Shown: positions 33,609-35,943 of the stretch, piece by piece
How the letters are laid out: each line of letters begins with the position of its first letter
Position numbering within the stretch: position 1 is the stretch's first letter
The notes under the pieces: generated by a model
What the model was told of the DNA's origin: nothing
The model's database searches: none
Seen by the model: only the letters and a program-made list of their open reading frames with translations
Position numbers and translations under genes: made by a program
Origin: Escherichia coli
Lineage (GTDB): Bacteria; Pseudomonadota; Gammaproteobacteria; Enterobacterales; Enterobacteriaceae
NCBI RefSeq assembly: GCF_003334315.1
Contig: NZ_QOWR01000026.1
Length of the DNA stretch: 57,948 bases
Reading direction: 5' to 3' (one strand)

Positions 33609-34673
33609 ATGGTAACGTCCTGTACTGGACATGTTTTAGATAATCAACGCGCCACCACTCGCGGAGTTTTCTCCTCCGGTAGTCATCTCGTCACTTTGCA
33701 TTTTCAACCTCATCCTTTCTTTTCATGTGTTACCGACGCCGTAAACGGTGCGCGTAGCCGTTTTTCGGCATTTTATCCAAAAGCAAACTATGGCTTACAA
33801 GGAAGCCAACCCTCTGATGTTCGTGCGCATAATCGCGCTGCCAACGGCGCGTGTGATGAATACAAACAACTCAAGGTGCTCTCCATGGGAAGACAAAAAG
33901 CAGTGATCAAAGCTCGTCGCGAGGCAAAACGTGTGCTGAGACGGGATTCGCGCAGCCATAAGCAGCGTGAAGAAGAATCGGTCACCTCGCTTGTGCAGAT
34001 GAGCGGCGTAGAAGCCATTGGTATGGCCCGCGACAGTCGCGATACCTCGCCCATCCTCGCGCGAAATGAAGCGCAATTGCACTATCTGAAGGCTATTGAG
34101 AGTAAGCAGCTGATATTCGCTACGGGCGAAGCCGGGTGCGGAAAAACCTGGATCAGCGCAGCAAAAGCGGCAGAGGCCCTGATACATAAGGATGTCGACA
34201 GGATTATCGTCACCCGTCCAGTTCTGCAAGCCGATGAAGATCTTGGCTTCTTACCTGGAGATATCGCAGAAAAGTTTGCTCCCTATTTTCGCCCGGTCTA
34301 CGACGTGCTGGTCCGGCGCTTAGGGGCTTCCTTTATGCAGTACTGCCTGCGACCGGAAATAGGGAAGGTGGAAATCGCGCCGTTCGCCTATATGCGTGGA
34401 CGTACCTTTGAAAATGCAGTCGTCATTCTTGACGAGGCGCAGAATGTGACTGCCGCGCAAATGAAAATGTTTTTAACCCGCCTCGGGGAGAACGTGACGG
34501 TTATCGTCAACGGTGATATCACACAATGCGATTTACCTCGCGGTGTGCGCTCCGGATTAAGTGACGCGCTGGAACGTTTCGAAGAAGATGAAATGGTCGG
34601 GATCATCCGATTCGGTAAAGAGGATTGCGTACGTTCGGCACTTTGCCAACGTACGCTGCATGCCTACAGTTAA
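33609..34673 (+). CDS. phoH: PhoH ATPase (phosphate-starvation inducible)
   Basis: 354-aa ORF with Walker A motif GEAGCGKT. Confidence 0.9.
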   Translation: MVTSCTGHVLDNQRATTRGVFSSGSHLVTLHFQPHPFFSCVTDAVNGARSRFSAFYPKANYGLQGSQPSDVRAHNRAANGACDEYKQLKVLSMGRQKAVIKARREAKRVLRRDSRSHKQREEESVTSLVQMSGVEAIGMARDSRDTSPILARNEAQLHYLKAIESKQLIFATGEAGCGKTWISAAKAAEALIHKDVDRIIVTRPVLQADEDLGFLPGDIAEKFAPYFRPVYDVLVRRLGASFMQYCLRPEIGKVEIAPFAYMRGRTFENAVVILDEAQNVTAAQMKMFLTRLGENVTVIVNGDITQCDLPRGVRSGLSDALERFEEDEMVGIIRFGKEDCVRSALCQRTLHAYS

Positions 34674-34690
34674 GTGTGTTATCGGTGCAG

Positions 34691-34720
34691 AGCCCGGGCG
34701 AACCGGGCTTTGTTTTATTT
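34691..34720 (+). terminator. Rho-independent terminator of phoH
   Basis: AGCCCGG-GCGAA-CCGGGCT hairpin followed by TTGTTTTATTT. Confidence 0.75.
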
Positions 34721-35256
34721 CAACAGATTTTCACTTCAGGTTAGCGTTCAGGGGGGCGACTTTGAGCGTGTTGATAAGCTGAACTGGAGTCTGGTTTAGA
34801 TACTCTTACCAGGCATTTTTCGTCATAGCATCAGACCAGTGTAATACTGCCAGCGCGGAGAGTTTTTCTTCCAAAAGCCAAAAAAATGAGCATCTGCCTA
34901 TCTTTTTTCGGCCATTCAACCTGTACAGGAGATCTGGTGCCAATTTTGCTTATGAGGTTTAATCAACAATGGGCCATAATTTGCCTGACTGATTAACACT
35001 GAATATATTCCTCTGATTTATTCTTTAGGGATAATATTATAAATGTAAGGTTAATCTTAATTAATTCTTTTGGCTAATATTGTGTGTTGTTATTTTTTTT
35101 GTGGAAGGCAAGCTGCAATGGCAAAATAGGGATGGTTGTAATAATCAAAACATGATACTAACTATATATTGATCGTTGCATTGTTGGCATGTAACACGCT
35201 TCAGCGAGTAACATTGGTAATGAAATATAATCAACATGGATAGGTGAAAATTAATT

Positions 35257-35943
35257 ATGAGCTTTATGGCTTTTGTAACTTGTTTGACAATTGCATTTAT
35301 CGCCGGTTTTGCTGTTGCCAGAAAATTGACACTCCGAAAAGTTGCCTCATCGGTAATCATCGCTAAATCGCAACCAGTCCCTTCATCTGCAACTTCCCCT
35401 GCCGCTAAGGCGTCGACAAGGAGCTATATACCGCAGAAAACCTATCGTGACTCTCGTTGGCAAGAGCGAGATGAGTTATTTCAGGGAATGGTTGCCGAAG
35501 GTATTTTATTGGAAAGAAAAGAGTGGTTAATCACGCGTTGTGAAAAAATGTATTTCGATAATCTGGAAAAATGGTTTGGACACTATTGTCATATCCATTG
35601 CCAGGTCTCTCTGGGGCGCTTGATCAACTTTCCAGAACAACCTGAGTTTAGCGAAGAAGAAAGAAAGCGTTTCTTTGCAATTTATAATGGCATGGCAATG
35701 GATTATGTTCTGGTTTCAAAGAAGAACAATAAAATAGTCTGTGTTATTGAGCTGGATGACCCGAGTCATGAAAGGGCGGATCGCATTATTCGTGACCGTT
35801 GGTTGGATACGATTATGACTCTTGCACGGGTGCCTTTTGTACGAGCTTCTGTCACTAAATTGGAGGAAATCCCTCCGGTCTGGGAGACTCGTGACAAAAT
35901 TCGCCCATTAGTCGCGGCGACAAAGAGTGAACCGTTGCATTAA
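35257..35943 (+). CDS. Hypothetical membrane-anchored protein, possibly with a restriction-endonuclease-like (DUF2726/NERD-like) C-terminal domain
   Basis: 228-aa ORF preceded by TATAAT at 35226-35231 and AGGTGA Shine-Dalgarno; N-terminal hydrophobic helix FMAFVTCLTIAFIAGFAVA; C-terminal segment VCVIELDDPSHERADRIIRDRWLDTIMTLARVPFVRAS; domain assignment from memory only. Confidence 0.6.
   Translation: MSFMAFVTCLTIAFIAGFAVARKLTLRKVASSVIIAKSQPVPSSATSPAAKASTRSYIPQKTYRDSRWQERDELFQGMVAEGILLERKEWLITRCEKMYFDNLEKWFGHYCHIHCQVSLGRLINFPEQPEFSEEERKRFFAIYNGMAMDYVLVSKKNNKIVCVIELDDPSHERADRIIRDRWLDTIMTLARVPFVRASVTKLEEIPPVWETRDKIRPLVAATKSEPLH

Follow-up and report, generated by a model that had tools for sequence, protein, structure and literature searches.

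A membrane-anchored DUF2726 protein between phoH and serX of Escherichia coli, a candidate for a membrane-gated nuclease

What does the additional gene found between phoH and serX in some Escherichia coli strains encode, and could its product act on DNA that enters the cell? We addressed this question in a stretch of 57,948 nucleotides from E. coli (contig NZ_QOWR01000026.1 of RefSeq assembly GCF_003334315.1; hereafter the window). A first-pass annotation, made from the sequence alone, had noticed there an open reading frame (ORF) of 228 codons next to serX; this ORF begins with ATG, its translation was confirmed, and serX lies 91 nt downstream of its stop codon. The modelled product is shown as a bitopic inner-membrane protein with an N-terminus of two residues, one transmembrane (TM) helix and, joined to it by a flexible linker about 40 residues long, a compact domain of the DUF2726 family. 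We consider it a sensible candidate for a second kind of membrane-gated nuclease. The parts of the gene, all on the + strand, are as follows (AF2, AlphaFold2; pLDDT, predicted local distance difference test).

35257..35943, + strand: ORF of 228 codons with an ATG start, DUF2726 domain-containing protein
35263..35337, + strand: single TM helix, residues 3-27 (hydrophobicity, and AF2 helix 3-27 at pLDDT ~95)
35338..35463, + strand: Ser/Pro/Ala-rich disordered linker, residues ~28-70 (coordinates for 28-69; AF2 pLDDT 58-74)
35464..35925, + strand: globular domain with a predicted restriction-endonuclease fold, residues 70-223 (AF2; Pfam part 90-205)
35542..35544, + strand: E96, invariant Glu in the first core helix (97-sequence alignment)
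35701..35703, + strand: D149, N-terminal end of the second core strand (147-154), the putative 'D' of PD, at least 90% conserved
35749..35769, + strand: E165-L-D-D-P-S-H171, third core strand (160-167) with E-x-D in place of (D/E)xK, and the invariant His in helix 169-172

The first-pass annotation had pointed to a DUF2726/NERD-type fold, and the DUF2726 half of that proposal held. Pfam DUF2726 (PF10881), which belongs to the PD-(D/E)xK clan, matches residues 90-205 with an independent E-value of 4.2e-18 and 65.7 bits, making the protein a direct member over 114 of the 126 model positions (3-116). No second family was found in the Pfam scan at E<=10, where both NERD (PF08378) and Vsr (PF03852) were unmatched. 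An AF2 model run on an alignment of 97 sequences has a mean pLDDT of 88.9, and the compact domain at residues 70-223 reaches 92-98. Its elements follow one another as helix 94-107, strand 111-118, (helix 133-144), strand 147-154, strand 160-167, helix 174-189 and strand 194-198, and the alpha-beta-beta-beta-alpha-beta core of the PD-(D/E)xK, or restriction-endonuclease-like, superfamily is present in this predicted structure.

Vsr, RAP domains, I-Bth0305I, TnsA and DUF559 are the solved structures that match the model best. Judged from the model, the fold belongs to the Vsr/DUF559/RAP branch, with the signature D...E-x-D...H and no canonical Lys, in agreement with a published grouping of 'VSR, DUF559, DUF2726' within the PD-(D/E)xK superfamily, where the DUF2726 entry reads 'Unknown' (PMC3424549). 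At the sequence level, the DUF2726 family profile had 0 matches among all PDB chains at E<=10, and its hhalign comparison with E. coli Vsr gave a probability of 0.2%, that is, no relationship; the link to Vsr is one of predicted fold only. The protein is not a member of the Vsr family, given the missing Pfam match, the hhalign value and neighbours that are phoH and serX, not dcm. Vsr itself (PDB 1cw0) is soluble, whereas the protein studied here is membrane-anchored. DUF559/NGO0050 (3hrl) and the catalytic domain of I-Bth0305I (3r3p) are soluble or intron-encoded, in contrast to a TM-anchored protein whose gene lies outside any intron, while the RAP domains (FASTKD4 and mitoribosomal RAP proteins) are eukaryotic, organellar, RNA-associated, soluble and 7-10% identical to it. 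These matches also suit a reading that we consider unlikely, in which the protein would be a housekeeping membrane nucleic-acid enzyme uninvolved in conflict with foreign DNA: Vsr acts in repair and RAP domains occur in organellar RNA-binding proteins, and the E. coli protein could accordingly be a Vsr-like nicking or repair endonuclease or a RAP-like RNA-binding or processing protein. Unlike vsr, which accompanies dcm, the gene has no adjacent cytosine methyltransferase; further evidence on this reading comes from the history of the locus, discussed below.

Conservation was measured over 97 family members, down to ~20% identity. E96, E165, H171 and D180 are invariant, and D149, L166, D167, D168, R176 and R179 are conserved in at least 90%. 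According to the published rule, canonical sites have an Asp at the start of core strand 2 and a Glu in strand 3 (PMC3424549), and the putative catalytic D149 and E165 occupy these structural positions. The position of the Lys is taken by D167, which is kept as D or N across the family and is followed by the invariant H171 in a short helix. The proposed PD-(D/E)xK-like nuclease domain thus stands as far as the core fold and the placement of D149 and E165 are concerned, and fails on the canonical triad, which reads E-L-D. Because of the pattern in which acidic and His residues are conserved, the alignment speaks for a functional site, catalytic or metal-binding, of the variant type seen in Vsr and DUF559.

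The substituted Lys could instead mean that the domain is catalytically inactive, a nucleic-acid-binding tether or accessory subunit of envelope machines such as type IV and type VI secretion systems (T4SS and T6SS), of which the E. coli copy would be a DNA- or RNA-binding relic that does not cut. RAP domains, which share the fold, are binding modules in mitoribosomes. We hold this to be quite unlikely: four invariant residues together with D149, D167 and D168 at 90% or more over 97 sequences form the pattern that an active site would be expected to leave, enzymes of the Vsr and DUF559 type likewise have no Lys, and E. coli and Salmonella retain the gene without adjacent T4SS or T6SS genes in most strains.

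A HMMER scan of 1.84 billion cluster representatives returned 1046 relatives at E<=1e-3. A C-terminal zinc ribbon of the topoisomerase I type has been added in 6 of 124 DUF2726 representatives and hints at DNA as the ligand. Relatives of the Anaerobiospirillum/Succinivibrionaceae type (P0042, P0045; locus L036, 10001-10927) have two tandem DUF2726 domains in proteins of 469-605 aa, which end in long low-complexity Ser/Lys/Gly tails.

How is this domain placed in the cell? The single N-terminal TM helix suggested by the first-pass annotation is borne out by a 19-mer at residues 3-21 with a Kyte-Doolittle value of 2.32, lying within AF2 helix 3-27 and flanked by two uncharged residues on its N-terminal side and by RKLTLRK on its C-terminal side. 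The 15 aa that follow the helix carry a charge of +4, against 0 ahead of it, and from this positive-inside pattern an N-out/C-in topology with a cytoplasmic DUF2726 domain is predicted. Between E. coli and Salmonella, nonsynonymous divergence (dN) is about fivefold higher in the linker than in the domain (0.53 versus 0.105), and the linker contains a 9-aa indel. The anchor was counted in full-length representatives that combine the core motif with an N-terminal extension, 132 in all. Ahead of the domain, 117 of them (89%) carry a hydrophobic segment (19-mer of Kyte-Doolittle value >=1.6); the flank behind the helix is the more positive of the two in 108 of the 117, and the reverse is true of seven. 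By this count, a TM anchor is the norm in DUF2726 proteins. A lipoprotein or a cleavable signal peptide was rejected, there being no positively charged n-region, a hydrophobic stretch of ~20 residues and a basic cluster directly after it; a lipobox was likewise discarded, Cys9 not being conserved.

The opposite orientation, with an outward-facing nuclease degrading periplasmic or extracellular DNA and thereby affecting biofilm matrix or DNA uptake, seems to us highly improbable. EndA and NucA, the membrane nucleases of Gram-positive competence, do face outward. In Avibacterium paragallinarum, moreover, two transposon insertions in a DUF2726 gene raised biofilm formation (PMC13119452). Against this stand the charge bias of the E. 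coli helix, shared by the 108 family members just mentioned, and the missing n-region and conserved lipobox.

A precedent for an inward-facing arrangement is SNIPE, which consists of a TM segment, DUF4041 and a GIY-YIG nuclease in N-out/C-in topology and cleaves lambda DNA during injection (Saxton et al., bioRxiv 10.1101/2025.11.03.685801; reviewed in PMC12904381). Its membrane tether prevents self-cleavage, and TM-deleted SNIPE is toxic (bioRxiv 10.1101/2025.11.03.685801). A short periplasmic N-terminus, one TM helix and then a cytoplasmic nuclease would be common to both proteins, the topology of the DUF2726 protein being predicted from charges. The nuclease folds differ, GIY-YIG in one case and Vsr-like PD-(D/E)xK in the other, and the DUF2726 protein is much smaller; neither DUF4041 nor GIY-YIG was found in it by Pfam, and PADLOC gave no match at E<=1. 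By analogy, the resemblance suggests a possible mode of action and not family membership.

The reading that we prefer, with a probability of roughly 0.35, is therefore that of a membrane-confined nuclease acting on entering DNA, with a logic like that of SNIPE and a different fold. The DUF2726 domain would be an active metal-dependent endonuclease, held by its tether at the inner face of the membrane and away from the nucleoid, and would mainly encounter nucleic acid on its way through the membrane, for example phage DNA during injection and conjugative or transforming single strands. It would form a constitutive one-gene barrier in which self and non-self are told apart by location, and the gene would most likely have originated as a domesticated copy of an accessory gene from integrative and conjugative elements (ICEs) or T6SS loci. 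Conserved putative catalytic residues, the anchor as a family norm, the zinc ribbon, the conflict-related and mobile contexts of relatives, fusions to AbiJ domains, the SNIPE precedent and purifying selection all support this reading; cutting of incoming foreign DNA by the protein is plausible but unproven.

Several points weigh against it. The canonical catalytic Lys is replaced by Asp, the topology is assigned from charges alone, and the protein has no domain comparable to DUF4041 of SNIPE that could recognise a phage or T4SS component. Literature mentioning the family reports no nuclease activity, substrate or phenotype for any DUF2726 protein. The E. coli protein matched 0 families of PADLOC-DB v2.0.0 at E<=1 and no NCBIfam model at E<=1, and three close relatives (P0026, P0031, P0015) had 0 PADLOC matches as well. 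In E. coli and Salmonella its neighbours are housekeeping genes (phoH, serX, ghrA), with no defence island there. Finally, positional stability over ~100 My and strong purifying selection are unusual for defence genes. In the PADLOC scan of ten relatives, weak HEC-02B matches (E 3e-4 to 0.018) were seen for two distant members, and weak DEDDh matches for distant or multidomain members.

Do the surroundings of relatives help? Those that are 37-55% identical all have the TM-linker-domain layout and recur in three settings, namely a slot of ICEs, T6SS clusters and positions beside vgrG. The ICE slot is a fixed one of PFGI-1/ICEclc-type elements and was found in five loci, from Dickeya, two Pectobacterium species, an E. 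coli ICE and a metagenomic contig. The order there is DUF1525-TraU-...-TraG_N, a MazEF or PIN/MazE module, a small ORF and the DUF2726 gene, followed by ~1 kb of non-coding DNA, beyond which lie a Phage_int_SAM_2/Integrase_1 gene and then RadC, ArdC and DUF1281. This spacer is 72-85% identical at the nucleotide level across the five ICEs, carries RNA motifs above the Rfam gathering scores (STAXI, 81-110 bits; EFASI, 55-71 bits) and is possibly where the ICE leading region begins. In the T6SS setting, found in three genera, the order is TssM-TssA-DUF2726-TssF-TssG-TssJ-VgrG with spacers of 17-27 nt; DUF2726 is not described as a T6SS-associated gene in literature mentioning the family. In Erwinia, the gene lies directly upstream of a vgrG-DUF2169-PAAR-toxin/Rhs islet, among SymE toxins. 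Positions in the individual loci are given below.

L007, 8751-8911 and 9353-9501: STAXI/EFASI motifs in the ICE spacer (Rfam)
L008, 8777-8930 and 9437-9594: STAXI/EFASI motifs in the ICE spacer (Rfam)
L030, 9824-10483: TM-DUF2726 gene embedded between tssA and tssF, Citrobacter sp.
L027, 10001-10648: TM-DUF2726 gene embedded between tssA and tssF, Rahnella woolbedingensis
L033, 10007-10603: TM-DUF2726 gene embedded between tssA and tssF, Candidatus Pantoea deserta

A contig labelled Chryseobacterium sp. 18061 (L031) shows the same match coordinates and identities as Citrobacter sp. 18056 (L030) with two matching queries, probably reflecting cross-contamination or mislabelling in co-culture assemblies. 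Embedding in T6SS core operons with such short spacers, and the fixed ICE slot after traG, are what an inactive accessory subunit of these machines would also lead one to expect. That the closest relatives sit on ICEs and in T6SS loci speaks against a housekeeping role, which finds some support in a Xenorhabdus homologue surrounded by metabolic genes. Distant representatives P0038, P0043, P0085 and P0098 lie on contigs of 1.4-2.9 kb, whose context was uninformative.

Among plasmids, the only tblastn matches were chromosome-sized records under a wrong label and a single Vibrio plasmid at 30% identity, and the protein is essentially absent from plasmids. Papers on mcr-1 report a DUF2726 gene beside mcr-1 on IncX4 and IncI2 plasmids; this gene was not detected as a relative of the E. 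coli one by tblastn against plasmids at E<=1e-5. Among phages the protein is rare: tblastn found only seven Vibrio elements of 10-13 kb with 28-37% identity, and PHROG 14167 is labelled 'unknown function'.

The toxin-antitoxin modules that neighbour the gene in the ICE slot, together with published fusions of DUF2726 to AbiJ N-terminal domains (AbiJ-NTD3-DUF2726; PMC3710099), raise the alternative of an abortive-infection or toxin-like effector, in which the tethered nuclease would be harmless until infection or envelope damage freed it, for instance by cleavage of the linker, to degrade host DNA. The long, fast-evolving disordered linker between anchor and domain and the toxicity of TM-deleted SNIPE are compatible with this idea, which we nevertheless regard as very unlikely. 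Neither the + strand from the phoH terminator to the gene nor the stretch from its stop codon to serX contains a conserved ORF of at least 40 aa, and the 91 nt before serX hold no partner antitoxin or immunity ORF; no cognate antitoxin, immunity, sensor or protease gene is nearby, and PADLOC gave no Abi match. The defence or abortive-infection context offered by the first-pass annotation is thus neither supported nor refuted: PADLOC and NCBIfam are silent and no defence genes lie beside the E. coli gene, while relatives do occur in conflict-type loci. The neighbourhoods of homologues comprise housekeeping neighbours in E. coli and Salmonella and, elsewhere, the ICE slot with toxin-antitoxin modules, T6SS clusters and vgrG/Rhs islets.

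Is the gene a recent arrival in E. coli? Of 5426 complete E. coli genomes, 1050 (19%) carry it, with a median of one copy per genome and 95.5-100% nucleotide identity, and 1051 of the 1052 matches are chromosomal. Since 81% of E. coli, K-12 included, do without it, the gene is dispensable, and this also tells against a core housekeeping function. In some strains (NZ_CP034106.1, NZ_AP021894.1) the gene is split by, or lies next to, IS1, the match falling in two pieces, consistent with dispensability. K-12 has no counterpart of window positions 34700-35950 and its match resumes at 35952; its phoH-serX interval (L002, 2576-14000) contains pgaDCBA-dgcT-IS3-ycdU and three RtT repeats. As pgaC occurs in 4382 of the 5426 genomes and the pgaC and DUF2726 counts sum to 5432, the DUF2726 gene and pga are two almost complementary fillings of this interval in E. 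coli. That some strains lack pga/ycdT between phoH and serX had been noted earlier without mention of the DUF2726 gene (PMC5635171). Complementarity to a biofilm locus would also fit an outward-facing nuclease, and is explained by alternative occupancy of one locus.

On its downstream side, phoH is followed directly by this gene in E. albertii (88% identity), Salmonella enterica (71%) and a genome of an Escherichia cryptic clade (95%). For the very common Salmonella orthologue (P0009, 3781 collection blocks) the annotation often gives 151 aa, whereas its ORF (L012, 5797-6456) remains intact over 219 aa and keeps the TM start, MSFMFFVSCLAIAF, so that the deposited annotation misses the TM anchor. 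Between E. coli and Salmonella the domain has a dN of 0.105, a synonymous divergence (dS) of ~2.2 and a dN/dS of ~0.05, indicating that it is under purifying selection; dS of the adjacent phoH is 2.04. Base composition is lower in GC (43.7% versus 50.4%; at third codon positions, 41% in the gene versus 55% in phoH), and this low GC, together with the ICE-borne relatives, suggests an ancient foreign origin.

Within the window, no integrase ORF was found between phoH and serX, no direct repeats flank the gene, and no second copy of the serX 3' end was detected at <=3 mismatches. Because the position beside phoH is the same in E. albertii and Salmonella, dS resembles that of phoH and integrase and repeats are lacking, the gene is the old state of the locus, vertically kept in Escherichia and Salmonella, and not a recent islet. 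The tRNA-adjacent islet proposed by the first-pass annotation was therefore abandoned, low GC being its only islet-like trait. Conversely, pga-dgcT-ycdU looks like the derived replacement, since the outgroups E. albertii and Salmonella carry the DUF2726 state. Islands do occur between the gene and serX in O111:H11, and serX is a known site of island integration, with a pathogenicity island in CFT073 (PMC3855560). Stable residence beside phoH, a dS equal to that of phoH and a dN/dS of ~0.05 are arguments for a housekeeping enzyme; a terminator separates phoH from the gene, however, and adjacency to phoH is limited to Escherichia and Salmonella.

That positions 35257-35943 are a real gene and not a chance ORF follows, on sequence grounds, from the orthologues in E. 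albertii and Salmonella and from the low dN/dS of the domain. It is also catalogued already, uncharacterised but not undiscovered: RefSeq annotates the gene as 'DUF2726 domain-containing protein' (WP_001305896.1, WP_000009226.1), and the exact protein has this name from PGAP and UniProt and heads a cluster (P0001) of 2055 member sequences. The locus is the E. coli efeUOB-phoH ... serX-ghrA region, with efeB and phoH upstream and ghrA, ycdX and ycdY downstream. The signals around the gene are the following.

34687..34713, + strand: phoH intrinsic terminator (11-bp stem, 7 GC pairs, then a T run), upstream boundary of the unit
34714..35256, no strand: AT-rich intergenic region upstream of the gene, 543 nt at 36% GC, absent from K-12
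35226..35231, + strand: TATAAT, candidate -10 element, read from the sequence
35242..35247, + strand: AGGTGA, Shine-Dalgarno sequence, read from the sequence, with the ATG 9 nt further on
36035..36122, - strand: serX, tRNA-Ser(GGA) (ARAGORN and Rfam), downstream boundary, its 3' end, the known side of island integration, facing the gene

The strong phoH terminator and the 543-nt spacer, whose GC fraction is 0.29-0.35 in 300-nt windows, indicate that the gene is a separate transcription unit, and co-transcription with phoH was rejected on account of that terminator. The first-pass annotation had given the gene its own -10 element and Shine-Dalgarno sequence. Both are in place, and a TGAAATATAAT block containing the TATAAT is kept upstream of the Salmonella orthologue; no acceptable -35 accompanies the TATAAT, and a consensus promoter scan did not list it.

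Some further observations concern the neighbours. The phoH ORF (33609-34673, +) yields 354 aa if an upstream ATG is taken as its start, PGAP giving 262 aa (789 nt) in related genomes and gene callers 262 or 284 aa in Salmonella. Antisense to its 3' end, an Rfam match to Ysr251 (RF02855; window 34500-34668, -) scores 160 bits against a gathering score of 100 and is partial, ending at the edge of the searched stretch. In the 91-nt spacer before serX, a 20-nt segment (35957-35976 / 36045-36064) is 85% complementary to the serX T-arm region, and a sub-threshold sX4 match of 37 bits covers 35965-36133 (-). The segment looks like a degenerate remnant of RtT-type repeats, of which other strains have one to three full copies at the same spot.

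As it stands, the gene is a correctly recognised and already catalogued member of an uncharacterised family, and this changes little. New here are the family-wide pattern of anchor and topology, the ICE and T6SS placements, the ancestral status at phoH-serX and the near-complementarity with pga. In E. coli, where 19% of genomes have it, the gene forms a natural presence/absence polymorphism at a defined locus and offers a cheaply testable lead. If the domain were an active nuclease acting only at the membrane, the location-based discrimination of self and non-self known from SNIPE would extend to a new fold, perhaps to conjugative DNA, and a DUF that comprises over 1000 representative clusters at 50% identity would gain a function. 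Tentatively, and with considerable doubt, TM-anchored DUF2726 proteins at large may form a widespread minimal class of location-gated nucleases that destroy phage, conjugative T-strand or transforming DNA at entry. Such a class would explain their recruitment by the T4SS modules of ICEs and by T6SS clusters as well as their retention in 19% of E. coli and many Salmonella, and would represent a second, structurally unrelated solution to the principle of SNIPE, possibly aimed at single-stranded conjugative DNA.

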